Below, in pieces: positions 28,801 to 48,360 of a stretch of 64,000 nt of DNA (positions are counted from its first letter, which is position 1; each line of letters starts with the position of its first letter). Source of the stretch: a virus. Position numbers and translations under genes: made by a program. The DNA lies in IMG/VR virus record IMGVR_UViG_3300036985_002638, positions 1 through 64,000 of that record; one strand, 5' to 3'. Under the pieces are notes generated by a model. It ran no database searches. It had not been told where the DNA came from and worked only from the letters and a program-made list of their open reading frames with translations.

Positions 28801-31146
28801 CAAAGAGCCTTATTAAAAGAAGCTAGTAAAGAGTTTGCTATTAAAGCTAAAAGATACTTAGGGTACTTAAAATATAAAAAAGACTTTAGAGCAGTACAAG
28901 CTATCCTAAAAGATAAGGATTTAGATGAATATACTGAAAATGAGTTAAACGATTTAATTACTAAGTTATTTTCATTTAATGATAGAGCAGCTAAGGCAGT
29001 AAAAGAGAGAGCGTATCAAAGACTTGGACACCTAGTTACTGTTAAGCAAAACGAGATACATAAAGATAAAGAAGGCTTTATAGAGGCATTAGGTAAAACA
29101 AGTGATATTAGTCCACTACAAAGTAAGATATTACATTACTCTCAATTTTCTGAAAAGAATGCAGATATGCAAGCCTTAGCATTAGCAAATGGAAAGGCTA
29201 TTATTGATAAAATAACTGAAGCTAATTCATTAAAAGATACTCATGCTAAACTTGGATTAAAAGTAATTCAAGAAGAGAATAAGAGATTAGGTATTACAGG
29301 TAAAGCCGCCAATAGATTTAGTTCTGATTCAAGTAAATACTTTGAGTGGATGATAGATGATAATGGTAATTACTTAACAATAGATGAAGCAAAAGCTAAA
29401 GGATTGTCTAAAGCTAAACTTGACTACTTAGACTTCCATAGAGAAACAGTTGCAGGATATAGAGAATCTATGTCTGCAAATGACTATGAGAATGTTAAAA
29501 TGGGTGCCATTAGAGTAGATAAGAACTTTAGAGAGGCTTATAAATCAGAAGGTTTAATTCCTGCTTTTAGTTATTACTTAGGTGGAGGAGCAACTAACTT
29601 AGGTAGAGTTAGAATCCTACATAATGGTAAGGTAATGTCTTATTCTGAAATAGAGAAAGAGATTATTGCTGGTGTTGACAAGAAAAACATTAAGAGTATA
29701 GCAAAGGCTTTATATAATTTACTTGTAGCTAACATTAAAGCTAGACGCCAATTAAAGAAAGGTCAAAATATTGATGAGAAAGATAATCCATTAGAGTTAA
29801 AAGGAGATGCTGAGTATTCATTAAACGAGAAAGGTCAATTAGTAAGTAAGTTTGATAAGCCAAGAGCTAAAGATAGAGGTTACTCAAAAGACTTCTATAA
29901 AGCTATGAATCAATTTATAGATGAGTCAGCACACGTTAAGCATATCAGTAAGATTATGCCATTAGTTGAGGCTATAGAGTATCTTAATAAGTATGGTTAC
30001 ATGGAAGAGGGATATGTTCCTAAAAAGAATGTATCTAAGTGGATTAACGATTGGAAAGCTTTACAGATTTTCAAAGAACCTTATGTAAATGATCCTGTTA
30101 TTGATGCGGCTATTAAATCTTTAAGAAAATTAGTAGCAAGTACAACAATGTGGTTTAATATTCCTGCTAATGCTATTAACGTATTTGTAGGTAACTACAA
30201 TAATTGGAGAGCTGAGAACGCAGAAACATTAGCTAGAGGTAATGCTAGATTATTTGGAGGTAAAGGAAGTAGAAAAAAAGTAGGTATTGTTAATGATTAT
30301 GCTTTGGCTATTATTAAAAAATACAACTTAGTAAACCAAGATTTTGACTCTCATCCTGTAATTAAAGCAGGTAGTATATTTTCTAAGTTAGCAACGTGGG
30401 GTACTCAAGTAGGTGAATATCAAATACAAGGTTCTTTAGGGTTAGGTTTACTTAATCAAGAAGAGTTTGATAGTTTTGAGTTTACTAAAGATAAATACGG
30501 TAACGATGTATTAACTGTTAAGCCTAATGGAAAGTATACTGAAGATGAGATTAAATCTAAAATGACTCAAGTTAAGAATAGAGTTACTGATATACAAGGT
30601 AAGTATCCTGACGAAGACCGCCGTAATATTATGCGTGGAGAGTTCGGTAAAGCTTTATTCCAATTTAAAGTATGGATGCCAGATTGGTTCAAAGAAAGAT
30701 TCTCAGCTAGATACTTTAATGCTTATGGCCAAGAGAAAGAAGGTTCTTATACTAAGATGTTAAGAGTAGGAGTTAAAGAAATGGCTGCCGATTTAAAGAA
30801 AGGTGATATTAAAAAAGCTTTAACTAATCCTGCTTTTGTTCAAAACTTAAAAGGAATGGCTACAATCGGAGCTTTATTAGCTCTTAAACACGGAGGAGAT
30901 GACGATGATGATAAGAAAAAAGGTGGGTTAAATTGGGATAGTGCATTAAGTCAAGTATTATTTATCTTTGATTTAGAGCAAGATAAGTACATGGTAAGTA
31001 ACCCTGCTGCTATTTTGGGCAAGATTAAAGATATGTTAAATGCTTTTGAGGCACTTGTAGGATTTGAGGAAGATGCTTGGCAGAAAACTAAGAGAATTTT
31101 ACCAGGAGGTAAAGCTGTAACATTTGTTGAAAATCAAATAAAATAA
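22891..31146 (+). CDS. Giant virion cargo / polyvalent protein with a zincin-like metallopeptidase motif
   Basis: 2751 aa; IYINPNYAGLDTPIHEAGH (HExxH at 28225-28239) plus EVLAEAIG; no DxDGD/DFDxD RNAP motif seen. Confidence 0.7.
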   Translation: MPEKPKFNPNEPYKTVNTAKPAFDPNQDFKVIDEGRTFDRDSNVELPKYTTPQDLEIDSTLNFIQENSLRTMRDDEKDILKNMMKNPLTSKEELSDAIVTLQGKKAKQIDNSWTTPDYYMKRDEKSGNYKPIALEQGEKIPVGYHAASIWGTKESAKDDNAWQDIGKSLANGVFGLMGGVVDVAQSGYELVTGDESETLRSGKNAIEGLKFEKDADLDRPVYNMEGITKWADLLDKDRFDFSPQALWGTFNSTAESLTEFGLGSLTGATWLKGAKALKYGYKGIDKALDLGKAGKLGAIFTGSFFTNIGETRDAAEEAGLEGRDKGAVSLGIATVKSAIDAAFGLEGKIMSNAFKASEREVFKNLIKKAEKDAVTGLITPNGFKQLMKEASLEYSTLAKVGSKSGQVVKDMIEEGSNEVATDFAQKAGEQLWDKLTPDERGQFGTDAFDAKSFGSYANSFTQGAISGGMMSIPSQVLKNNHDRQSINAYERVKEGPEAVNALRTDLNNALDKGEITPSEHEQANFKIDAYSKYNEETKGVNLKPENEKKAFELSFQIQGLKTEIPTNENEISKLDPIARAKVESKQKQAKELQSELNDIIRQGEIKGEPVIPKKEEERIQKEKEKEIKVEETNSKLSQEKEVEKAKTRQPDIEGLGKEKVITYPKLENKPYWKDDKRTYEEIDTEEFNNPSTDARTIHRVVRKEAYNKPNRKLFGNLTKRLYSYINDEGDRMKGDVIEVTMEDGKKIRVASSKQEFKDENDKTVRWDDIFRRHFRSERTQGNEEGLPVGIRAVDLNNPLNEDKGPDYKPGKIALKVFDARTGKFLSWAKETKTGSAESLDKAGNELYTAEQKDLLKTLEQQMYNENPEGGDVIERLTKPKPKPTPTDLKAQKTDIERRNKETESKIKNKELFLAEYDEKGNKIGESVGEMISQSSAAPIATSVREQDGFEFVEFSNPQTGQVDVIVSGDTKGNYVGFYRLYENGKPTNKWSSKMNSKSKTAFKTMISGVQEMLPQNHEYSEKTSISTDGLRVWNQQLQRGYELQYDSNGDLITDAVAINGDALVNELGIDVNEGNFDNISVTSKKQFETVKKALLPYLEKFGLNESNIRNVSGTVEIDLPVLRKSNTTQPTTQTSNQSEIEAKKADIEKRSGLNGVEEIIFSNPNFRLEGFEIDGNYWNVVTSTDRAKVLVNINGVIVPFYLTTGQAGKGLVPGWYPFFGIGKDGWLNKTDKSDMETYYERYWGKETADIVKSISEELNGFYGTDPSAFKNDGDPNATSRPLTTLADKVEDYINSKLNYTPAINNADARKTLRSNVEQLGKEINAKYDAELAALEGTTTTTEKAKVATEKIVEEGKAKVAEQKASVPLTITKAVKQQLYDLGYSKVNVDNMKPERALDIINKQETNKKEVISEKESTKKEPAAKKDSSSLRRKITGYNQLSSDEKKSDFGVNLRKEIQKEVEEFGGSLKPLLKGKIQLLDSEGKQVKKAPIKRKQSVIDAEKAIAKKRKDALSTNPTTPEQYIAMVIGSKGQFKESVVGEIPDVPSMMKDFKNGYTLESLYQGYQEKSGFYDINEDDFNSRANSFLSDYLTKGGRDLAIDYAVEAYEREINDGYTDKEIAEMVAYGESLGLTENEVVVIDESVQNLNEEEVTELETKIENTNEKDRNEESANKIIQNIAGEEGSNKSPFDEMESEQDSEEGKDIIKGEEGAEPFQKVSQRKGDFQKVFEKIQANFKGITVVEDASKFKGEQSTVAGKVSADGKTIYINPNYAGLDTPIHEAGHILIDAMGYNNRIIQAAIKQLRTTPLYAETKERYKELSESELDKEVLAEAIGREGADIFDKVEDRSKFKAYLDYIFDWLKQKLGLDKNVAKSLAKQIIGGVKTKELKGVATGKEQLQKDKKKPFADQALKYNQYATAEGFDAQKEFDKYEQATVELREVKEDEKLATIAADEAVTDEEIKSADAELEKQRALLKEASKEFAIKAKRYLGYLKYKKDFRAVQAILKDKDLDEYTENELNDLITKLFSFNDRAAKAVKERAYQRLGHLVTVKQNEIHKDKEGFIEALGKTSDISPLQSKILHYSQFSEKNADMQALALANGKAIIDKITEANSLKDTHAKLGLKVIQEENKRLGITGKAANRFSSDSSKYFEWMIDDNGNYLTIDEAKAKGLSKAKLDYLDFHRETVAGYRESMSANDYENVKMGAIRVDKNFREAYKSEGLIPAFSYYLGGGATNLGRVRILHNGKVMSYSEIEKEIIAGVDKKNIKSIAKALYNLLVANIKARRQLKKGQNIDEKDNPLELKGDAEYSLNEKGQLVSKFDKPRAKDRGYSKDFYKAMNQFIDESAHVKHISKIMPLVEAIEYLNKYGYMEEGYVPKKNVSKWINDWKALQIFKEPYVNDPVIDAAIKSLRKLVASTTMWFNIPANAINVFVGNYNNWRAENAETLARGNARLFGGKGSRKKVGIVNDYALAIIKKYNLVNQDFDSHPVIKAGSIFSKLATWGTQVGEYQIQGSLGLGLLNQEEFDSFEFTKDKYGNDVLTVKPNGKYTEDEIKSKMTQVKNRVTDIQGKYPDEDRRNIMRGEFGKALFQFKVWMPDWFKERFSARYFNAYGQEKEGSYTKMLRVGVKEMAADLKKGDIKKALTNPAFVQNLKGMATIGALLALKHGGDDDDDKKKGGLNWDSALSQVLFIFDLEQDKYMVSNPAAILGKIKDMLNAFEALVGFEEDAWQKTKRILPGGKAVTFVENQIK

Positions 31147-31176
31147 TCTATATATTTACACTATAAAAGTAATAAA

Positions 31177-31848
31177 ATGGCATTAGAAAGAATAGATTTA
31201 ACAGGTTGTATCGAAATAGAGAAAGGTTGCACACAACTTTTGTTCTCAGATATAACTGGATTCCTTGTTACAGTATGTAACGATGAGTATAATGAATTTG
31301 GATATGGATTAATAGATGGAATAGCATTAGATGATGTTACTTCCGCGCAATTAAACGTCTATTATCCTTCGATGACTACGCCTATTACTTTTGATTTCAT
31401 TATCGCTAGTCACGTTATTACAGAATGTTTATTCACTGATTTAAACGGAACAGTAACAGATATTACTGCTTTATTAGAATCTACAGTATTCCCTTTGACT
31501 AACTTTGATGTTACTTTAGCTGCTTATGGAGTTACTTTACCTGAAATGGCGGATGGCATCTTTAAATGGGATTACACTATCAGTGGATTGAGTGGAGGAT
31601 TATCATTCTCTTATACTACTTCAGATGAAGCTTTGTCTAGTTGTTCAGTAAATTGTTGCATAGAGAATAAATATGTAGAAATGGACTTATCTTGCGGATG
31701 CTTTGACGATAAATTAAAAAACTTAATTCTATCAGAAGTATTATTACAAGGCGCTAAATACGCTATGAACGTAGGACAAGATAATAAAGCTCAAGGTATG
31801 TTAGATAAGGCTGCTGAGATTTGTGATAGTAATTGTACAGATTGTTAA
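31177..31848 (+). CDS. Structural protein, tail hub-like, Cys-rich C-terminus
   Basis: 223 aa, acidic, ending CDSNCTDC. Confidence 0.5.
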   Translation: MALERIDLTGCIEIEKGCTQLLFSDITGFLVTVCNDEYNEFGYGLIDGIALDDVTSAQLNVYYPSMTTPITFDFIIASHVITECLFTDLNGTVTDITALLESTVFPLTNFDVTLAAYGVTLPEMADGIFKWDYTISGLSGGLSFSYTTSDEALSSCSVNCCIENKYVEMDLSCGCFDDKLKNLILSEVLLQGAKYAMNVGQDNKAQGMLDKAAEICDSNCTDC

Positions 31849-37242: not shown

Positions 37243-37803
37243 TTATCTTAATAATTTAATGTGAACTCCTGGATTATTTTTATCGTATTGATATGGTTTA
37301 AAAGAAGGGATTAGAAAGTCTGCTGAATCATCTTCTATCCAATTATTTTCAGTGAATAAATCTTCGCAAGTTTGCGATGCATTACAATAATCGAACCTAT
37401 GCTTACTTCCCCTTACAAATGTAAACTCAACTCTAAATGGAGGTTTTAATCCGTAATGTTCAATAGCTTTTCTAAACTCTATTCCAAATATATTGTATTG
37501 CATAGCTGTAACCTTCTTATATTCTGAGTGACCTTTGCTTGGTAAACTAATCTGCTTGCCATTTCTAACAAAGTTTATTCTACTATTCTTTTTAGAAGGA
37601 ACGTTGTAAGTAATAAACCACTCTGTATTTATTTTATGCTCAAAATCAGGGCTGTCATTTACTTTTAACTTAGGTATAATATCAAGCATTTCAAACTCTT
37701 TAAATTCTTTTGGAGTATGCTTTTTACTATAAGTACCATCTTCATTACGAGTTAATCCCATAGCTTCTAATCTCTCTATTGTAAACCCTGTTTTCTTAGC
37801 CAT
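37243..37803 (-). CDS. RusA-like Holliday junction resolvase
   Basis: NVPSKKN, RFDYCN....EDL......IEDDS, DKNNPGV.I motifs. Confidence 0.7.
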   Translation of the reverse strand: MAKKTGFTIERLEAMGLTRNEDGTYSKKHTPKEFKEFEMLDIIPKLKVNDSPDFEHKINTEWFITYNVPSKKNSRINFVRNGKQISLPSKGHSEYKKVTAMQYNIFGIEFRKAIEHYGLKPPFRVEFTFVRGSKHRFDYCNASQTCEDLFTENNWIEDDSADFLIPSFKPYQYDKNNPGVHIKLLR

Positions 37804-38114
37804 TATCCAAATATTAATTTAAGTTTTTTAAGAGCCTCTGCTTCATCAAATTTAGGAGAAGTAATAAGTAATTGGGTATTAATACCATATCTTACTGCTA
37901 ACCATATAATCTGAGCTTCACTTAGTGTATTCTTTTGAGGCTTATCACTAAAGTATCTTGATAACTGCTCTGGAGCTATCTTGAATCGTCTTTCAGAAGC
38001 ATCTAACACAACCGCCGAGTTCTTAAATCCAAATCCTACATTGGACGGATAAAGCTCTTTCAGCCTGTCGTGGATATGCTTCTTTAAGACTTTACTATCC
38101 TTTACTAATGACAT
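37803..38114 (-). CDS. Hypothetical protein, possible HTH
   Basis: 103 aa; IAPEQLSRYFS helix pattern. Confidence 0.4.
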   Translation of the reverse strand: MSLVKDSKVLKKHIHDRLKELYPSNVGFGFKNSAVVLDASERRFKIAPEQLSRYFSDKPQKNTLSEAQIIWLAVRYGINTQLLITSPKFDEAEALKKLKLIFG

Positions 38115-38358
38115 CTAAGTATTCATCTATGTTGTTAATAGCTATATCTAATTGTTTCTCTAGTAAATCATTTGTAGTTTTAGGAAAAGTGAGTCTTCCG
38201 ATTTCTGATTTAGTTTTACGATCAACAAATGTTTGGAGGTTAAAAAATTCTCCATCAGCGTTTCTACCTATTGGTTCTTTGAAAGTATCAATAGTAACAA
38301 TGATGTTTCTTCCGTCTTTTGTTTTTGCTTCTTTAGCGATTGATGCTGTTGGTTTCAT
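38095..38358 (-). CDS. Hypothetical protein
   Basis: 87 aa in operon. Confidence 0.5.
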   Translation of the reverse strand: MKPTASIAKEAKTKDGRNIIVTIDTFKEPIGRNADGEFFNLQTFVDRKTKSEIGRLTFPKTTNDLLEKQLDIAINNIDEYLDVISKG

Positions 38359-38366
38359 GTTTATAT

Positions 38367-38834
38367 TTATTTATTAATTACTATTTCTCTGTAATATTTA
38401 TCTGTATAAGACTCGGGAGATAATACTATTACTCCTTCTTGAGCCACAAAATTGAGGACGTTGTCTATGAACTCCGATGTTTCTTTCTTATTCAACTCTG
38501 TTAAACTCTTTACCATGTGCTTGTCGTATTTCTTTTTACCTACTACTACTCTTATTTGGTAAGCTAAAAACATAGGTTGAAACACTTGCTTATGTAATTC
38601 CTCTACATTACTGTAACCTTGGAATGACTCGTGTTGTAAGCAAGTTCTAAGTATTCCTCCCCAATAGTAAGAGAATTGAGATACACTAGGGCGTTTGTGA
38701 CGTTCTTTAATTACAAGTTCTATTTCTTTACCTGCAAGAGCATCACGTTGTTCATCCCATAAATCTTTATGGTAAAATACTATATTTCCGTTATCTAAGC
38801 ATCTGCCGAAGTGGCGCACAATTACATCTGCCAT
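38367..38834 (-). CDS. NinB/DUF1367-like recombination protein
   Basis: RPSVSQFSYYWG...LH......SLTELNKKE.SEFID.V pattern. Confidence 0.55.
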   Translation of the reverse strand: MADVIVRHFGRCLDNGNIVFYHKDLWDEQRDALAGKEIELVIKERHKRPSVSQFSYYWGGILRTCLQHESFQGYSNVEELHKQVFQPMFLAYQIRVVVGKKKYDKHMVKSLTELNKKETSEFIDNVLNFVAQEGVIVLSPESYTDKYYREIVINK

Positions 38835-38849
38835 TTATTGTTTTTGTTT

Positions 38850-38926
38850 TGGTACACATACAGGACTCGAACCTGTGACCTCTTGGGATTATTGCCAAGC
38901 CTCTATCCAACTGAGTTAATGTGTAC
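38850..38926 (-). tRNA. Atypical tRNA / tRNA pseudogene, anticodon undetermined
   Basis: Minus strand GTACACAT-TA-ACTCAGTTGGATAGAG-G-CTTGG-CAATAATC-CCAAG-AGGTC-ACAGG-TTCGAGT-CCTGT-ATGTGTAC-CA; intact T-arm and acceptor stem, 8-nt anticodon loop. Confidence 0.7.
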
Positions 38927-38939
38927 TGTTAATTGTTAA

Positions 38940-39698
38940 TTAGAACATATCTCCTTCTTCATCTCCTGGATTAAAGATAATCTCCTTCTCTTCTTCCTCC
39001 ATTTTAACTTCTGATTTAGGAGCTGATTTAGATTTAGAGTTTAAGCCATTATCTTGATTAGAATCCACAACTTCACCTGCCGCTACTGTAGAAGCGTTTT
39101 TAGCTAAATATGCAGTTAAGTACTCTTGTAACTCTCTATCTAATTCTATTGCCGCGTTATTAGCTTCATCAGATACTTTTAAAACTTCATACACTGGTTC
39201 AAAATACTTAGTAGCGCCCTTCTTCATTGGATTAGCTTTCTTAACCGAAACTCCAATCTTACTCATCTTCTTTCCTTTGCAGAACTCAATGTATGGTCCT
39301 AATGCAGAACCTTTTAATTGTAAGTTAGCTAATACATAATTCTTACCTTCTTTAATAGCTACATATACAGATTGAACGTAATCAAGTCCGCGAGATGATA
39401 ACTTCTCTTTTACGTTTTCGTATAAGCCTGTCATAACTACTCCGTTCTTTGTACGAACTGTTAGCATATCAGTTTTAGTGTTACGGATTTCATTTGAATA
39501 GAATCCTAATCCTGCCTTCTCATCATAACCTTTAGTTGTAGATAATTGATCTAACGGCAGAAAGTAGAAAGGTAATTCAATGAATACATTTTCTTTCTTT
39601 TCTTTATCGTAGTACTTAAATTTTCCTTCCGAACCACTCCATTCGATAAATTTTGAAGCTGGGTTTACGGCGTTGTCTGTTGGATTACTTCTTGACAT
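38940..39698 (-). CDS. Putative single-stranded DNA-binding / recombination protein
   Basis: 252 aa; beta-rich N-domain and acidic C-tail ending DEEGDMF. Confidence 0.55.
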   Translation of the reverse strand: MSRSNPTDNAVNPASKFIEWSGSEGKFKYYDKEKKENVFIELPFYFLPLDQLSTTKGYDEKAGLGFYSNEIRNTKTDMLTVRTKNGVVMTGLYENVKEKLSSRGLDYVQSVYVAIKEGKNYVLANLQLKGSALGPYIEFCKGKKMSKIGVSVKKANPMKKGATKYFEPVYEVLKVSDEANNAAIELDRELQEYLTAYLAKNASTVAAGEVVDSNQDNGLNSKSKSAPKSEVKMEEEEKEIIFNPGDEEGDMF

Positions 39699-41090: not shown

Positions 41091-41510
41091 TTATTCTTCT
41101 CTATTAAGCCTAAATTTATGGTATTGAGCATCTAATTTAGGAATAGGTATTTCATCAGGAAACACTCTTTTATCAGCATCAGCTTTAATATTAAGCCATA
41201 TCTCAGCCATCTTACATTTACAGTAGTCTTGGTATATCTTCTTATGCTTATCTTTATCTTTAATACTTCTATCTTGGATGACTAAGTAGTCTGCTTTACA
41301 ATTCTCTAATACTTCTTTCTTGATATTTTCATCAATAGTCATATCATTACCTGCCCATTTAAGTAAATCGTATAGCATAGCTCCTGAGTGTGTGTTTGTT
41401 ATTATTCCACAACCTTCATTATCGTAAAGGTTATAGAACTCTTTTAGGCATATAGCGGATAAAGCTAATCCTATTGGGGATTTAAAATCTACTTTAGAAC
41501 TCGTCTCCAC
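41091..41510 (-). CDS. Hypothetical protein
   Basis: 139 aa overlapping the end of dnaB. Confidence 0.5.
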   Translation of the reverse strand: METSSKVDFKSPIGLALSAICLKEFYNLYDNEGCGIITNTHSGAMLYDLLKWAGNDMTIDENIKKEVLENCKADYLVIQDRSIKDKDKHKKIYQDYCKCKMAEIWLNIKADADKRVFPDEIPIPKLDAQYHKFRLNREE

Positions 41511-42870
41511 TTGCGCCTCCTTTTATTATATCGTTTGAATCAGGAGCATAGTCTTTGAATGCCGAGTATTTACCCTCAAATCTTACATAAACCTTTCCCG
41601 TGCTTCCGTATCTGTTTTTAGCTACGTTAATTTCACACAGTCCACGCAAATCCATTCCTGTTTTTGGATCTGTTGCATCAGAATTATAGTAATCAGCCCT
41701 GTAAAGTAACCAAATTTGTACAGCGTTGGCCTCTATTGCTCCCGAGTCTTTCAAATCAGACATTAAAGGATATGGCGGATTTCTCTTCTCTACATCTCTT
41801 GACAACTGAGATAATTCAATCATGCAACAATTTTCAGTTTTAGAAGTTTCAAGTAACCCATTACATCTATCTCCAACTTGTTCTTCTTTAGATTTTCCAA
41901 CCGTCTCTTCTTTGGTATTCTTCATTAACTGTAAATAATCAATCATTACAGTCATAAGTGTACTTAATGGAATGCCTAGTTGTTTACGAACCTTTCTTAT
42001 CTTAGTTCTCATATATTGCCAAGTAATTCCAGGAGTGTCATCAATAACTAGGTTTCTCTTAATCTTATCTCTTAGTTTTTTAATCCTTACTAAATCTTCA
42101 TCAGATACATTTCCGCTTCTAATCTGCCAACTATTAATCTCTAGGCAGTTAGCCCAAATGTTTTTCATTAATTGTTTTGCGGGCATCTCTAAAGAAAATA
42201 TAATTAACGGCTCTCCTTTATCAACAGCTATATGTTTAGTTATGTTAATAATTAAGCTAGTCTTTCCCATCCCTGGCCTTGCTCCAACAACAATAACTTC
42301 CTGCTTTGCTCCCGATGTAATTTTATTCAAGTCTTTTATACCATAAGAGTGTCCGATTGTTTCCGATTTACTATTCTGAGCTTCCATTAACTCTTCAAAA
42401 GCTTCATCAAAAATATCTTCAACGTGTCTTTCTACTGATAGATTGTTCTTAATGCTTTCAATATCCGACACTATTGACTTTAAATCTTCAATAGAACTAT
42501 TTACATCAGTTATCTCATTACTAAGCTCTGAGTGAACGCTATGAAGTATAGGTAGCATTTTTCTCTTAGTGTACTCATCGAATATATCATTTACATACTC
42601 TGATACGTTTTTAGCAATAGCATAATTTGGTTCCGACACTTCCAATCCAATCTCTTTCTTGTTACAGCCAGACTTAATTAACATATTAGAAAGTAGATAA
42701 ACGTCAGACTTTCTACCTTTATCGTGGTTATGTTTTATAATTTTATACTTAACCTTGTTAAAATTTGTGGACCACAATTCATCAAATATCAAATGGTGAC
42801 ATGACTCGAATAAATTTTCATTATCTGCATATAAATTTAGTACCGCTCTTTCTTTCTCTTTTAATGTCAT
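41494..42870 (-). CDS. dnaB: Replicative DNA helicase, DnaB family
   Basis: GARPGMGKT, FSLEM, IDYLQLM, LSQLSRDVEKR, DLKDSGAIE, VAKNRYG. Confidence 0.95.
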   Translation of the reverse strand: MTLKEKERAVLNLYADNENLFESCHHLIFDELWSTNFNKVKYKIIKHNHDKGRKSDVYLLSNMLIKSGCNKKEIGLEVSEPNYAIAKNVSEYVNDIFDEYTKRKMLPILHSVHSELSNEITDVNSSIEDLKSIVSDIESIKNNLSVERHVEDIFDEAFEELMEAQNSKSETIGHSYGIKDLNKITSGAKQEVIVVGARPGMGKTSLIINITKHIAVDKGEPLIIFSLEMPAKQLMKNIWANCLEINSWQIRSGNVSDEDLVRIKKLRDKIKRNLVIDDTPGITWQYMRTKIRKVRKQLGIPLSTLMTVMIDYLQLMKNTKEETVGKSKEEQVGDRCNGLLETSKTENCCMIELSQLSRDVEKRNPPYPLMSDLKDSGAIEANAVQIWLLYRADYYNSDATDPKTGMDLRGLCEINVAKNRYGSTGKVYVRFEGKYSAFKDYAPDSNDIIKGGASGDEF

Positions 42871-43250: not shown

Positions 43251-43269
43251 TTTTTAATTCAAGTTTGAG

Positions 43270-43551
43270 TTATAAATTAAATACTTTATCTAAATTGATT
43301 TGTTGATACCATTGCAAATAACTTACATCAACTTTTTTAGGCTCGTTAATCAATAACTGACTAGCTTTACTTTTACTTAAATGCTTTCTGTTAATTATCC
43401 AAGCATTAGCCGATTCATTAAAGTTAACGAGTGTAGGAACATTTGTGATATTAAATAACAACTTTTTTCTAAATGCTAGTATCTGATTTTCAAATATTAG
43501 GTAGTTAGAGTAGGTTATAAAATAATCGTTGTTTGGTTTTGCTTCGTTCAT
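43270..43551 (-). CDS. 93-aa hypothetical protein at the intI position of the cassette array
   Basis: Starts 40 bp from the first GTTAG crossover and points away from the array; no tyrosine-recombinase motifs. Confidence 0.6.
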   Translation of the reverse strand: MNEAKPNNDYFITYSNYLIFENQILAFRKKLLFNITNVPTLVNFNESANAWIINRKHLSKSKASQLLINEPKKVDVSYLQWYQQINLDKVFNL

Positions 43552-43597
43552 TATCAGTTAGTTAAGGTGGTTGATTGCGTGTAGCGAGTAGTTAGCA
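43552..43597 (+). other. attI-like site (array-proximal crossover G/TTAGCA without a preceding hairpin)
   Basis: GTTAGCAG at 43591 opens cassette 1; no TAAC arm or inverted repeat upstream. Confidence 0.5.
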
Positions 43598-43626
43598 GTA
43601 ATAAAACTCCCACGCTCCTGTGCGTA

Positions 43627-43887
43627 TCAACCAGCGTTAAAAGAGCCTAATATTACGCCTCTTACTTGTTCCTCATTTGCTATCCCTATTTCTTTACAAA
43701 ATATAGATGTTTCTTTTAAAGCCCAATCACTCCATTTGCTATTAGGTTCTTTGTAAACCCTACCGTCAGGATGTATTGTTTTAGCATCAGTTTCATTTTC
43801 AGCGCAAACGATACATGAGTCATAAGTATCATAATCGTTGTTGTCATTTTGGGTTAATAAGTATATTTTCATTTTAATTATTTTCAT
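43627..43887 (-). CDS. Cassette 1 ORF, hypothetical protein
   Basis: 86 aa; YDTYDSCIVCAENE.DA..IHP...GVILGSFNAG phage-type small protein. Confidence 0.7.
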   Translation of the reverse strand: MKIIKMKIYLLTQNDNNDYDTYDSCIVCAENETDAKTIHPDGRVYKEPNSKWSDWALKETSIFCKEIGIANEEQVRGVILGSFNAG

Positions 43888-43934
43888 TTTAAGTTTTATG
43901 TTTTACATTTCAAATTGCTATTCTGTTTTACTAC

Positions 43935-44010
43935 TGCTAACAGCACCTAATAAACAGGCGGACATCAACTATATTTATACCGCCCGTCCATTAGCTGCAA
44001 AACGTTAGTT
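43935..44010 (+). repeat. attC-like site 1
   Basis: TGCTAAC-AGCAC-CTAATAAACAGGCGG...CCGCCCGTCCATTAG-CTGCAAAAC-GTTAGTT. Confidence 0.8.
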
Positions 44011-44059
44011 TCAATAAAATAAACCATTGATGTTTACTTTTCTGATGTTAATATAAGCG

Positions 44060-44365
44060 CTACTTACCGTACTTTTCCTTTAATCTTTCTAATTGCTCCA
44101 ATTCCCTTCTTTTAATTTCTTCATTTCTTTTGTTGGTTTCAGCTATTCTAAAACTAAACTCTTCGTCTGTTTCTAATCTTTGATTAAAAGCAGTAATTGA
44201 AACATACGCATTTCCATAATCATCATAAGCTTCTATGTCAATATAATTAGCTCCTAATTTTTCAAGTTCATTAATATCTTCTTTTAATTTGCTTATTTCA
44301 ATTCCATAAGTCCAGTTAACTGAGTAATTAACTTCAAATTTTCTTAATTGTTTTTCCTTATTCAT
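44060..44365 (-). CDS. Cassette 2 ORF, hypothetical protein
   Basis: 101 aa; RLETDEE...ELEQLERLKEKY phage-type protein. Confidence 0.7.
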   Translation of the reverse strand: MNKEKQLRKFEVNYSVNWTYGIEISKLKEDINELEKLGANYIDIEAYDDYGNAYVSITAFNQRLETDEEFSFRIAETNKRNEEIKRRELEQLERLKEKYGK

Positions 44366-44399
44366 ATTTTTTTATTTTAATTTGGTTTATTTTACTGTA

Positions 44400-44486
44400 A
44401 ACTAACACAACCTAACAAACATTTGAGCGTTACTGCTAATATGTATCAGTTGGTCTACAAACGTCTGTTAGCCCCGTCCGTTAGTA
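44400..44486 (+). repeat. attC-like site 2
   Basis: AACTAAC-ACAAC-CTAACAAACATTTG...CAAACGTCTGTTAG-CCCCGTCC-GTTAGTA. Confidence 0.8.
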
Positions 44487-44503
44487 CCAATAGCCTTTGA
44501 TGT

Positions 44504-44851
44504 TTACGCTTCGGTTGTTGATATAGGTGGATTTGGTAATCGCATCCAATGTGTTACTGTTCCAAGTAAATTATGATTTGTATCAGATTTAAACTTATTA
44601 TCTTGTAAAAACCAAACTCCCTGATAAACACATTGGTTGAATTTTGGAGCATCGGCATTAAATAATAATACAAATTCAACTCTTTCCGTTGGTAATTTAT
44701 CTTTTACATTAAACCATTTATTTTTTTGGTTTGAGTATTCAACTATTAAAGCATCAATACACTTTAATACAGTTTCTTTTGGATGAACTAATGGAAAGTT
44801 GTAATAAGCAACTTCTACTATTTTTTCAGCGTATTGTTTTGAATCTATCAT
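44504..44851 (-). CDS. Cassette 3 ORF, DUF551-like protein
   Basis: KWFNVKDKLP...VTHWMRLPNPP. Confidence 0.75.
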   Translation of the reverse strand: MIDSKQYAEKIVEVAYYNFPLVHPKETVLKCIDALIVEYSNQKNKWFNVKDKLPTERVEFVLLFNADAPKFNQCVYQGVWFLQDNKFKSDTNHNLLGTVTHWMRLPNPPISTTEA

Positions 44852-44891
44852 AATTGTATGTATTTGTTTTTAAATTTAATTTGGCTACTGG

Positions 44892-44946
44892 TACTAACAG
44901 CACCTAATAAACAGCAAGCCGATTTATTAGCTGCAAAACGTTAATA
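44892..44946 (+). repeat. attC-like site 3 (minimal, 55 bp)
   Basis: TACTAAC-AGCAC-CTAATAAA-cagcaagccga-TTTATTAG-CTGCAAAAC-GTTAATA; outer arms identical to site 1. Confidence 0.8.
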
Positions 44947-44951
44947 TATAC

Positions 44952-44980
44952 TTAAACGTATATAAAAATAAAAGGTTACG
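44952..44980 (-). promoter_or_regulatory. ECF-type promoter firing into the cassette array from its distal end
   Basis: Minus strand CGTAACC-15 nt-CGTTTAA, directly beyond attC-like site 3. Confidence 0.65.
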
Positions 44981-45001
44981 TTTATTTGTAAATATTTAAA
45001 A

Positions 45002-45735: not shown

Positions 45736-48360
45736 TTACTTCTTTTTCCATTTGTTCTTCATTTCTAATTCGTAGTATATAGTACTGTATTGCCCCTTAG
45801 ATGCGAAGGTAGTGTCATATCCTTTAGATTTCAAATATTCTAACTCTTTTTTATTACAAGGTTCTAATGATATAATATCCGCGCATTGTTGTTTAGTGTA
45901 AGTATTATTTTGAATGTCGTGTCCTAAATCAGATATATATTTCAACTGCGCGGATGTAGCTGCTTCTTGCATCTTTTTCCATCCAAATTGTTTAGCAGGA
46001 GGTAAATCAATTAATATAATCTTTTCGTCTTTCTTATGTAAGTTTTCTACATGAGCAACTCTTCTTTGTCTTTCTTCTAATATTTGTTGTTTTTTAGCAT
46101 CAGTAGTAAATACTCTATCTTCTAAATTAAGAACTCTATCTAACTCCCAACAATTTATAAGCTTGTGTCTTGATGTCGAATCAACGAAGTCCAGGATAGT
46201 ACAAACTTGACCGTATTTATCAACGTATTCTTTTGATTTTAATCTAGTACCTCTTCCTACCGATTGAACAAATTTAACTAATGATTTTGTAGGAGATACA
46301 TTACCAATACACCCTACTTCTGGATGATTAAATCCTGTAGTAAGCACCATTACATTAGTTAATACTTGTATCTTACCCTTCTTAAAATCAGATATTGTTT
46401 GTTTTCTTTCAGGAGTTACTTTTTCGTCTCCAACAACAGGTTTACAACTAATTCCGTATTCGTTAAATATTTCAGATAAATCAACCGCGTGTTGTATATC
46501 AACACAAAAGAATATCCCTTGTTTTCCTGTAGCGTGTTTGATATAACTTTCAACTACTAATCTATTTCTTTTAGGTATATTTACTTCTGTAGCTAAATCC
46601 TTTGTATTAAGCTCTCCAGCAGTTGTTTTTACATTGTCTAATGAAACGTCTGTCTTAATTCTAATACCGTCTAATTGGCATAGGTAATTGTTTTTAATAC
46701 CATCTGCAATATTGTATTCAAATGTTATTTTATCAAATAAATTACCTAGAGATAAGCCGTCCATACGATACGGAGAAGCTGTCAATCCAACCATTAACTT
46801 AGGTTTGAAGTAATTTAAAGGCATGATATAAGTTCGACTCATATATTTATGGCACTCGTCCACAATAATTAGATCGAAATAATCTTCAAGTATCTTATCG
46901 AGTCTCCTGTAGAGTGTTTGTGCGCTGGCTACGATGACTTCTGCGTCTATTTTGAACGTATCTGCTTTAATAACGCCCATTCTAAACTGATTATTCTTAT
47001 TCTCGAAATGACACTTAGCTCCGTTAACCCAATTAATGAATCCTATTCCTTCAACGTGTCCAGCCATTTCTTCATCGAATTTATTTTCAATGAATGCAAG
47101 TGCTGATTGTTCGATTAGTTCTTCTGTATCAGCGATAAATAGAACCCTTTTAGCTTTTAAGCGTTCAGATAGTTCTACTGCAACTTTAGTTTTGCCCGTA
47201 TTGTGATGTACCGTAAAGTCACCTGTTAAGTATAAATGATTTCCATCTAATTCAAACCCATAAAAATCATCTTCTGTTAATGGCTCTACAGAAAATCCAG
47301 TAACTAAAACATCTTTTATTTGTCTTCTAGGACTCGCTTGTTTCCTTTTTATTTTACAAGGAATTTTATCAGTATGTCCGCTTATGTATATTCTATAATA
47401 TAATCCTTCAAAATTAATTGATTTTATTTTTGCTATTTTTTCTTTTTTATAAGCGCAAAACCCTAAAGACCTAGCTAAAAATAAAATATCGTCAGCTAAA
47501 GAATTGTATTTAGAAGATATTTCATATCCGCATCCATCGTGATTTAAGCTTCCATCAGAATCAATTAATCCCGCTAATAATTGCAATCTAGCATCCTCGT
47601 TTCCTGTTAATAATAGGCTTGGTATTATTTTCTCCCCAGTAATACACATACTTTTGCATATTTCAGATATGCTATTCTTATCTTTTCTAGCCTGATGTCC
47701 ATTTGGCATTGTAAATGAAAAGAACATACACCTATCTTCAGGAACAGTTTTTTTAATAGTTATTTCTGGATGGTTTATTGAACAAAACTCTTTAAATTCC
47801 CCAAAGAACCAATTTTCAACTTCAATATCAGGAATAGTTATTTGAGGAGTATTGAATGTTCCGTCTCCTAACCATAATCCTATAAAATAAGGATGAGTAG
47901 GACTTCCTTTATCTATACTGCTTATTATTGGCTTTCTGTAAAGTTTATATAAATGTTTTTTTGATTTACTCCAATCTAAATAATCCTTAACTGTTACGTT
48001 TTCTATTTTATTAGGATTATATTTTTCTCTATGAGGTTTTAATGTAGTTCTTTTTAAAGATAAAATATGGTTTTCGTTAACCATAAATGAATCTCCTTTA
48101 ACTGGAGTTATTTTATACATCAACTCGTTACCTCTAGCTAAGTTTAATACGGTTCTTTCAGTAGAATCATCTCCCATTAATTTATCTCCAACAACAATAT
48201 CCTGAACCATTTTAATAGTTCCGTCAAACATTATGATCGGAGTATTTAGAGCATGGCATCCAGTAGCTAATACAAGTAATAGCTTATCATTACCATTCTT
48301 TAAATCATCTTCTATACAAGCTAACGCTTGTTCTTGATAAGGCCTCAAGTTCTTTACCAT
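45736..48360 (-). CDS. Superfamily II (DEAD/DEAH, ResIII-like) helicase containing an intein
   Basis: LRPYQ, split Walker A ATG|TGKT, DECH, GLTASP, VLTTGFN.P, QSVGRGTR. Confidence 0.9.
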   Translation of the reverse strand: MVKNLRPYQEQALACIEDDLKNGNDKLLLVLATGCHALNTPIIMFDGTIKMVQDIVVGDKLMGDDSTERTVLNLARGNELMYKITPVKGDSFMVNENHILSLKRTTLKPHREKYNPNKIENVTVKDYLDWSKSKKHLYKLYRKPIISSIDKGSPTHPYFIGLWLGDGTFNTPQITIPDIEVENWFFGEFKEFCSINHPEITIKKTVPEDRCMFFSFTMPNGHQARKDKNSISEICKSMCITGEKIIPSLLLTGNEDARLQLLAGLIDSDGSLNHDGCGYEISSKYNSLADDILFLARSLGFCAYKKEKIAKIKSINFEGLYYRIYISGHTDKIPCKIKRKQASPRRQIKDVLVTGFSVEPLTEDDFYGFELDGNHLYLTGDFTVHHNTGKTKVAVELSERLKAKRVLFIADTEELIEQSALAFIENKFDEEMAGHVEGIGFINWVNGAKCHFENKNNQFRMGVIKADTFKIDAEVIVASAQTLYRRLDKILEDYFDLIIVDECHKYMSRTYIMPLNYFKPKLMVGLTASPYRMDGLSLGNLFDKITFEYNIADGIKNNYLCQLDGIRIKTDVSLDNVKTTAGELNTKDLATEVNIPKRNRLVVESYIKHATGKQGIFFCVDIQHAVDLSEIFNEYGISCKPVVGDEKVTPERKQTISDFKKGKIQVLTNVMVLTTGFNHPEVGCIGNVSPTKSLVKFVQSVGRGTRLKSKEYVDKYGQVCTILDFVDSTSRHKLINCWELDRVLNLEDRVFTTDAKKQQILEERQRRVAHVENLHKKDEKIILIDLPPAKQFGWKKMQEAATSAQLKYISDLGHDIQNNTYTKQQCADIISLEPCNKKELEYLKSKGYDTTFASKGQYSTIYYELEMKNKWKKK
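47200..48258 (-). mobile_element. Intein (353 aa) with LAGLIDADG homing endonuclease
   Basis: Begins C-HALNTPIIMFDG, ends FTVHHN followed by +1 Thr; internal YFIGLWLGDG and LLAGLIDSDG. Confidence 0.95.

Follow-up and report, generated by a model that had tools for sequence, protein, structure and literature searches.

A recombinase-less phage array belonging to a putative integron-like cassette family of Bacteroidota phages with an apparent Xer-like partner

Integrons are the textbook bacterial device for gene capture, and two matters remain open about them: how their single-strand recombination originated from the duplex recombination of Xer enzymes, and how their cassettes are born. What should be made, then, of a row of cassette-like genes in a phage that carries no integrase? 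This question was raised by an uncultured virus, IMG/VR record IMGVR_UViG_3300036985_002638, of which positions 1 to 64,000 were analyzed (this stretch of 64,000 nucleotides, nt, is called the window below). At 43592-44940 the window contains three consecutive units with a single open reading frame (ORF) each, all on the minus strand. We consider it probable that they form a three-cassette array of an integron-like system widespread in Bacteroidota phages, and we propose that an Xer-like enzyme acts on the folded sense strand of its sites. The comparisons described here support placing the array as a recombinase-less member of this putative cassette family, whose partner enzyme appears to be Xer-like.

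Each unit is closed by an inverted repeat of at least 15 bp (GTTA-arm and arm-TAAC), which starts with GTTAG, ends with CTAAC and is otherwise specific to the unit. Cassette 1 (43592..44004, 413 nt) has its arms at 43591-43607 and 43925-43941 (repeat I7; 17 nt, 94% matching, with a G.T at arm position 11) and encodes a protein of 86 amino acids (43627-43887) matching phrog_5444, function unknown. Cassette 2 (44005..44480, 476 nt) has arms at 44004-44026 and 44383-44406 and encodes a protein of 101 amino acids (44060-44365) with a weak match to phrog_25568; the computed core of its repeat (I6; 44009-44026 and 44383-44400) is 18 nt long with 89% matching, and by eye the arms extend to GTTAG and CTAAC with one bulged base. 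Cassette 3 (44481..44940, 460 nt), whose 16-nt arms lie at 44480-44495 and 44883-44898 (I11, 94%), encodes a DUF551 protein of 115 amino acids (44504-44851; E 8e-10). In each pair of arms the substitution mismatch is an A opposite a C in the plus strand, which makes a G.T in the minus strand.

Every unit is followed by a hairpin site that reads, in plus-strand order, TAAC, 5 nt, stem, tip, stem, 8-9 nt and GTTA. The sites of cassettes 1, 2 and 3 (43938-44007, 44403-44483 and 44895-44943) score 55.1, 42.4 and 53.7 bits with a covariance model built from 36 sites, and they are exactly the three matches of this model in the window, all on the minus strand. A 20-mer common to the hairpins is present in three copies in the window against 0.09 expected, and these are its only copies in the genome of 73.8 kb. 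When the three sites are folded as single-stranded DNA, the energies are -17.2, -15.7 and -8.6 kcal/mol for the minus strand versus -9.5, -8.5 and -5.1 kcal/mol for the plus strand, and in comparison with shuffled sequences the minus-strand folds alone stand out (z -4.2 for the site of cassette 1). No hairpin site was found ahead of the first unit, at 43552-43590, between it and an ORF of 93 codons. The minus-strand junction located there (43552..43591) reads ...CTAAC/TACTCGCTA in the sense strand (here and below the slash within a motif marks a junction or breakpoint) and occupies the position of the attI-like junction of related phages.

A sequence-only reading of the window had described three single-ORF units with inverted-repeat ends, joined by hairpins of the form TAAC-5 nt-CTAA...TTAG-8/9 nt-GTTA, with no hairpin upstream of the first. 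Coordinates and form hold for all three units, while the emphasis has to be moved to the minus strand, which carries the genes and is the strand that folds. It had viewed the cargo as phage-like genes, with a DUF551-like one as an example; the cargo comprises a DUF551 protein and two proteins of unknown function. It should be mentioned that the hairpins can also be read on the plus strand as a small peptide (LTAPNK...LAAKR, then a stop); this reading was rejected because in one relative (contig L007) it is interrupted by an in-frame stop, and because its two halves covary as the sides of a stem.

Sites of the same grammar are widely distributed. Exact and degenerate pattern scans of IMG/VR, together with loci fetched through DnaB, gave about 40 viral contigs, and the collection as a whole comprises more than 160 sites from about 60 uncultured phage contigs, besides sites in Bacteroidota genomes and in Polaribacter phage P12002L. 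In the sense strand a site is composed of TAAC-G, about four unpaired bases, a helix of 3-4 bp, one mismatch, a long stem, a tip and GTTA, and is followed by GTTA-arm, leader, ORF and arm-TAAC. The tip varies from about 9 to 100 nt, and the site lengths cluster at 45-50, 66-93 and 116-130 nt. The invariant TAAC and GTTA of the core plus one base are the only conserved sequence. The covariance model (the sequence-only reading had suggested one from the three sites of the window) gave 95 matches in the first 47 sources, with one orientation per locus throughout, and recovered the class of 120-130-nt sites though it was absent from the seed alignment.

Comparison of the sites revealed clear covariation. 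In the alignment of 36 different sites 87.5% of cells are paired versus 69.2% in shuffles, and two-sided changes are seen in 103 cells versus 42 expected, a number reached by none of 500 shuffles; when the partners are slid, pairing falls to 35-51%. Compensatory changes affect 10 of the 11 stem pairs, and the pair adjoining the core is a G.T in 34 of the 36 sites. The arms behave similarly: in 59 distinct pairs of arms, 89% of positions 5-16 are complementary to the true partner versus 50% for shuffled partners, and pairing ends after position 15. They are specific to the unit (51 distinct octamers among the 59 pairs), so that complementarity and not sequence is kept. A G.T at arm position 11 was found in 77 of 110 sense-strand candidates versus 14 of 79 antisense ones, all chosen for arm length alone.

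The two strands are not equivalent. Of 66 distinct sites, 56 have the better fold on the sense strand (Wilcoxon p 2.5e-9), and the G.T wobbles have their G on the 5' side 122 times versus 13 times on the 3' side. In 61 of 68 candidate units the ORF lies on the folding strand and points toward the recombinase end; of the seven exceptions, three seem to be accidental matches between arms. This asymmetry together with the covariation suggests that the substrate of the system is single-stranded DNA.

Hairpins of 48-49 nt from different contigs (e.g., L038:4537-4584, L032:1224-1271, L030:122-170 and L082:30008-30056) have different stems and an identical 11-nt loop, TCGTTTTAATG. The constancy of this loop on covarying stems suggests a sequence-specific contact.

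Which enzyme could serve these sites? Relatives whose dnaB DNA is 91% identical to that of the window encode, on the same strand, a tyrosine recombinase of 277 amino acids in the place of the 93-codon ORF (e.g., L025:3108-3941; contig L025 is from IMGVR_UViG_3300043435_000347). This gene is located between the array and dnaB in contigs L024-L028, L030 and L032-L038. Its product is identical in L024-L028 and L030, 92% identical in L038, 89% in L037 and about 46% in L032, L033 and L035. In L034 (4831-5927), beside a four-site array, the recombinase gene is split: one piece encodes residues 1-126 and the other, about 600 nt away, residues 238-275. Either the gene has decayed or an insertion interrupts it. 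In total, 34 loci were fetched through the recombinase protein, and the site model was run on the 26 that had not already been searched. It gave 68 matches in 22 of them. Each match is upstream of the recombinase gene and in its orientation, even though the search covered more sequence downstream than upstream; not all of the 68 are independent, because some loci are near-duplicates. Up to 11 sites form an array beside the gene. The last cassette meets a conserved attI-like junction, TAAC/TAYTATATGTA, about 45-70 nt before the recombinase start codon.

The recombinase has Phage_integrase and SAM_4 domains, with the catalytic residues R, K, H-x-x-R, H and Y in place. It scores best with archaeal XerA (NF040815, 198 bits), then with XerD and then with the integron-integrase model, below all curated cut-offs; the last match (TIGR02249, 164.5 bits, cut-off 265) comes in two stretches. 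It aligns unbroken to the solved XerA (PDB 4a8e, E 4e-35) and XerD, while with IntI4 (2a3v) residues 17-172 align with 16-175 and 202-274 with 248-319, leaving about 43 IntI4 residues unmatched; its C-terminal SPLS aligns with the IntI4 tail. Judged by these alignments, the enzyme is Xer-like and not an IntI, and is devoid of the IntI-specific insertion (the I2 helix region). Its homologues with more than 70% identity form at least 120 clusters, mostly unnamed or called XerD, and one is from an "uncultured Caudovirales phage". No close cultured relative was found for this recombinase or for the DnaB of the window.

If cassettes move, the arrays of closely related phages should differ at defined points. 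The sequence-only reading had taken the units for the footprint of integron cassettes, had expected cassette differences exactly at G/TTA, and had named in advance, as grounds for giving the idea up, relatives with the same three ORFs in fixed order and unconserved hairpins between them, or differences falling elsewhere. The outcome favoured the idea: the three ORFs are not kept by the relatives, and array content differs wholesale between those whose flanks are at least 95% identical. All in-array breakpoints between segments of at least 95% identity fall at TAAC(G) and on the 5' side, either of a hairpin or of the attI-like flank, and none falls at GTTA; on the plus strand this is G/TTA, as had been expected, and the relatives' tyrosine recombinase gene is placed and oriented like intI, at the hairpin-less end. 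The breakpoints are located to within the four shared bases of TAAC.

Several comparisons illustrate this. Contig L022 is 98.9% identical to the window across the 93-codon ORF and dnaB, and loses homology inside the last arm at ...GCTAAC/TACTCGC, where a different unit of 88 codons follows. Contigs L024, L025 and L026 have an identical recombinase, near-identical flanks and different arrays, with breaks that follow TAACG at one end and precede TAAC at the other. Relative to L018, L019 has 1839 extra nt, composed of three blocks of hairpin plus unit (that is, cassettes), bounded by GCATAACG and with flanks 99.9% identical; L020 differs from both, again at TAAC. The homology of the window with L024, L025 and L028 stops at the hairpin site of cassette 3. 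These positions mean that a cassette is made up of a hairpin and the unit that comes after it when the sense strand is read. Written on the plus strand, it starts with TTA and continues with the unit and the hairpin up to the final G, which is the classical layout with a G/TT crossover, but with the ORF reversed. As far as the motif can tell, TAA/C (plus-strand G/TTA) is the classical integron crossover point.

From these data the following mechanism can be proposed. The recombinase, which would be the enzyme acting on these sites, would bind the folded sense strand with one subunit on the helix of the TAAC and GTTA core and another on the inner helix. Having cut at TAA/C, it would swap one strand with a second site, either another hairpin or the TAAC/TAYTATATGTA junction, and the resulting junction would be resolved by replication, as in integrons. 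In this way cassettes would be inserted and excised as by IntI at attC and attI. The core helix is limited to 5 bp in the array, since the arms on its two sides come from different cassettes. If a cassette were free as a circle, its own arms would meet to give one long folded site with a 15-bp helix and the G.T at position 11; we propose that this is why the arms are kept complementary. The model predicts that insertion is favoured over excision. No promoter of the Pc type would be needed, since the cassettes are read with the surrounding replication genes. Tentatively, with the chances slightly on the other side, it can be suggested that a tyrosine recombinase without I2 performs recombination of the integron type on folded single strands by reading other shape cues, either as an independent invention or as a surviving early form of the integron. 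The 15-bp core helix with its G.T at position 11, the core-adjoining G.T and a 4-nt bulge would then replace the extrahelical bases read by IntI.

Several observations weigh against the interpretation as an integron-like system. In a passage of one paper the I2 region is presented as the innovation that shifted integron integrases away from double-strand and toward single-strand recombination (PMC7790495). The genome analyzed here is without a recombinase, so there is no sign that this particular array still moves. In distant contigs hairpins, arms and ORF bodies assort separately, and homology is mostly confined to the cassette ends. The identical 49-nt hairpin is paired there with different arms, and a shared frame (hairpin, arm plus leader, and the last 47 nt) encloses three unrelated ORFs: window 44480-44943 (115 amino acids), L006:9153-9569 (101) and L005:4836-5381 (136). 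The hairpin, the 5' arm and the leader up to the ATG are near-identical in the three; so too are the last 47 nt, which provide the closing codons (ISTxEA), the stop codon and the 3' arm. Similarly, L040 has the arms and ends of cassette 2 around an unrelated ORF of 129 codons. Of the window, metagenome contigs include the hairpins and arms and lack the ORF bodies of cassettes 1 and 2; the assemblies contain the 49-nt hairpin as a separate unitig and have joints at which one ORF body is exchanged for another between the same ends. Such separate assortment is not predicted by simple mobility of whole cassettes, and the replacement of ORFs inside conserved ends is left unexplained by every model that we considered. 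The conserved frames may reflect the way in which new cassettes arise. We had also looked for whole cassettes common to distant contigs; this was not borne out, as the ends are homologous and the ORF bodies unrelated.

The same observations are the main support for a different explanation. Since the array is transcribed in the sense direction, the covariation and the G.U pairs also fit an RNA structure, a further point to be set against a DNA substrate. The hairpins and arms would fold in a polycistronic sense transcript, serving its processing, stability or insulation, and the conserved parts would be patches of homology for exchange between co-infecting phages by ordinary homologous recombination, as has reportedly been proposed for promoter and stem-loop cassettes of T4-type phages. 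All units and sites are on the transcribed strand, the non-Watson-Crick pairs are G.U in that strand, and unrelated ORFs are found within the same hairpin, arm plus leader and 3' end, as would be expected of exchange points. What this explanation leaves without a reason is the tyrosine recombinase at the hairpin-less end, with 68 of 68 sites upstream of it and co-oriented; breakpoints on the four bases TAAC and not anywhere in the 50-130 nt of shared sequence; and an invariant TAAC and GTTA core, typical of tyrosine-recombinase crossover sites. In addition, an Rfam search at E up to 1 matched no family, and no clear enrichment was seen for promoter-like sites (16 versus 12.9 expected, in a scan for sigma-70-like promoters, with Bacteroidota promoter types outside its scope) or terminator-like sites (2 versus 0.8). 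We regard RNA modules as an unlikely account of the array, although a role in RNA folding or in homologous recombination may exist as a parallel function.

The Xer-like nature of the enzyme, which is closest to XerA and XerD and has no IntI insertion, brings up duplex recombination of the dif type, in which double-stranded inverted repeats centred on TAAC and GTTA would be bound and modules exchanged or inverted. The pdif modules of Acinetobacter plasmids, at which XerC/D are thought to act, are likewise flanked by inverted repeats, as each ORF is here. However, the arms are specific to the unit, leaving no conserved duplex binding site beyond 4-5 bases and nothing like the 28-bp (11-6-11) site of Xer/dif; instead there are arrays of hairpins whose stems covary and whose two strands fold very differently. 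Duplex inverted repeats would also invert the ORF, yet 61 of the 68 candidate units point one way. A dif-like exchange is thus quite improbable.

Returning to the integron-like system, we can ask why its putative recombinase is missing from the window. The absence of IntI from the window, noted in the sequence-only reading, extends to the whole genome (97% complete), in which we found no tyrosine recombinase (no PF00589 match) and no serine recombinase; the array is therefore similar to the clusters of attC sites lacking an integrase (CALIN). In the place of the recombinase gene there is the ORF of 93 codons on the minus strand (43270..43551), which gave no match in Pfam, PHROG or NCBIfam. That it might be a remnant of the recombinase was ruled out, as it shows no similarity to one. 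Homology with the recombinase-bearing L024, L025 and L028 resumes only at the last bases of this ORF. The junction keeps the hairpin-less layout but only TACT, 4 nt, of TAYTATATGTA, and L007 has the same TACTCGCTA.

Thus, the phage lineage would have swapped the recombinase gene and most of the attI-like junction for an unrelated block with the 93-codon ORF. After such a replacement the array may be frozen, or else a co-infecting relative may serve it in trans. The sites of the window score as high as those of recombinase-bearing arrays. Contig L022 shows the same replacement with a different terminal cassette, for which service in trans and homologous recombination are both possible. The replacement block is bounded by TAAC on both sides (...GCTAAC/TA and ...TATAAC/TC; window 43256-43275 and 43586-43595, L025:3037 and about 3945); this may be the trace of recombination at a secondary site or a chance occurrence in AT-rich DNA.

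Are there cultured phages with such arrays? Qi et al. (2023; PMC9892861) reported attC clusters without integrase in virulent phages, including Polaribacter phage P12002L. With the HattCI pipeline only two sites were predicted in this phage, in "divergent directions"; they were taken as classical attC and no cognate enzyme was named (PMC9892861). One of them, P12002L_attC1, was the sole phage site of six that gave no recombinants with IntI1 (PMC9892861). Our site model revealed four sites in P12002L (L082, NC_028924), on the gene strand, between methyltransferase and Mom-like genes. They have the same TAAC-G...GTTA grammar and the same TCGTTTTAATG loop, and the P12002L_attC1 oligonucleotide corresponds to one of them (L082:30008-30056). 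Two short arrays of the site family, at 29248-31255 and 37305-39099, are located around three methyltransferase genes and a Mom-like gene. The complete P12002L genome contains no recombinase and no homologue of the 277-residue enzyme. Thus, neither this genome nor that of the window has a recombinase, while the site family is the same; the arms, the position of the G.T and the Xer-like partner were not described in the earlier work (PMC9892861). The family was therefore glimpsed before as a CALIN, without its grammar or its enzyme. The sequence-only reading had seen here the best candidate for an undescribed system, which has to be qualified, since one site of the family had been predicted as attC. 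In the literature we found no paper on integron-like arrays served by an insert-less enzyme of the Xer type.

Two attC oligonucleotides from Pseudoalteromonas phage PH101, which were recombined by IntI1, also read TAAC-G...GTTA, with spacers of 5 and 5 nt (PMC9892861, supplement). The core grammar may therefore extend to phages outside Bacteroidota.

To learn about hosts, a separate scan with a two-part site pattern was made in 185,579 species genomes. It gave nine places, all in Bacteroidota; Brumimicrobium mesophilum JCM 14063 is one of the genomes concerned, and a complete Cyclobacteriaceae chromosome is another. Eight of the nine have the same grammar, and the two loci that were scanned for genes look prophage-like. 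No recombinase was found beside the sites within the fetched 8-kb loci; Xer-like homologues with 27-45% identity are encoded elsewhere in the site-bearing genomes. As to the cargo, the larger cassettes of the relatives encode C5 and N6/N4 DNA methyltransferases, a radical SAM protein, an RNA ligase and a PAPS-reductase-like protein, which is typical accessory and anti-restriction material.

An ordinary CALIN, composed of classical attC sites from a bacterial integron and served by a host IntI, is very unlikely: a family site was called attC by HattCI (PMC9892861) and the core, the asymmetric spacers and the variable tip do resemble attC, but no array-bearing locus has a gene of the IntI type, the neighbouring recombinase is always insert-less and Xer-like, the genome matches are limited to Bacteroidota with prophage-like loci where genes were scanned, IntI1 did not recombine P12002L_attC1 (PMC9892861), and 15-bp arms with a fixed G.T and reversed ORFs are foreign to classical cassettes.

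Several features are shared with integrons, whose attC sites are recognized by their shape and have R'' and R' boxes, a spacer that does not pair, L boxes and a variable end. Each single-ORF cassette is closed by an imperfect hairpin that has the AAC/GTT core, an unpaired, asymmetric spacer, covarying stems and a variable tip (about 9-100 nt here); the cassette ends are complementary and the boundaries lie at G/TT; and a hairpin-less junction adjoins a tyrosine recombinase gene that lies on the opposite strand relative to the polarity of the sites. As in chromosomal integrons, near-identical hairpins are common to different cassettes, and integrase-less arrays exist there too. With three sites within 1 kb and no recombinase, the array of the window is a CALIN, provided that its sites count as attC-type. 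The differences are as follows. The recombinase of the relatives is an Xer-like protein of 277 amino acids without the IntI-specific insertion. The core helix of a closed cassette would be 15 bp versus about 7, with a fixed G.T at position 11, and the spacers are 9 versus 5 nt in the sense strand. The ORFs run on the folding strand toward the recombinase and not away from attI, where a Pc promoter would read them. Finally, the carriers are phages of Bacteroidota.

A further parallel is offered by the PeSL mobile cassettes (promoter plus stem-loop) of T4-type phages, reportedly described by Arbiol et al. in 2010 and said to have no dedicated recombinase. There, too, short conserved stem-loop sequences are said to flank small accessory ORFs in hyperplastic regions, with swapping of ORFs. 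Their repeats are reportedly direct, in contrast to the inverted unit-specific arms, invariant core, four-base breakpoints and adjacent tyrosine recombinase found here.

If the integron-like interpretation is correct, the family is a natural system that combines integron architecture with an insert-less Xer-like enzyme and is abundant in environmental phages. Its cultured member, the virulent P12002L, would be a ready laboratory model. In virulent Bacteroidota phages, orphan DNA methyltransferases would then be among the accessory genes maintained as exchangeable cassettes, which bears on how they keep up with host defences. A published negative result would also be explained, that of a predicted phage attC that IntI1 could not use.

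As regards its setting, the array lies within a block of replication genes. On one flank is the gene of a DnaB-type helicase (41494-42870, minus strand) and on the other that of a superfamily 2 (SF2) helicase with an intein (45736-48360, minus strand). The latter protein (SF2/ResIII, 874 amino acids) has a Hint domain at residues 35-133 and a LAGLIDADG homing endonuclease at 246-329, both ahead of the helicase core. A blastn search of the array region and of one site against 50,697 deposited phage records gave no matches or only chance ones. Immediately past the last hairpin, an AT-rich stretch (44944-45001) contains an imperfect inverted repeat of 29 nt (I1) together with the motif AAAGGTTACGTTTA. 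It is kept in L006 and L025 upstream of their arrays, and may be a promoter region reading through the array.

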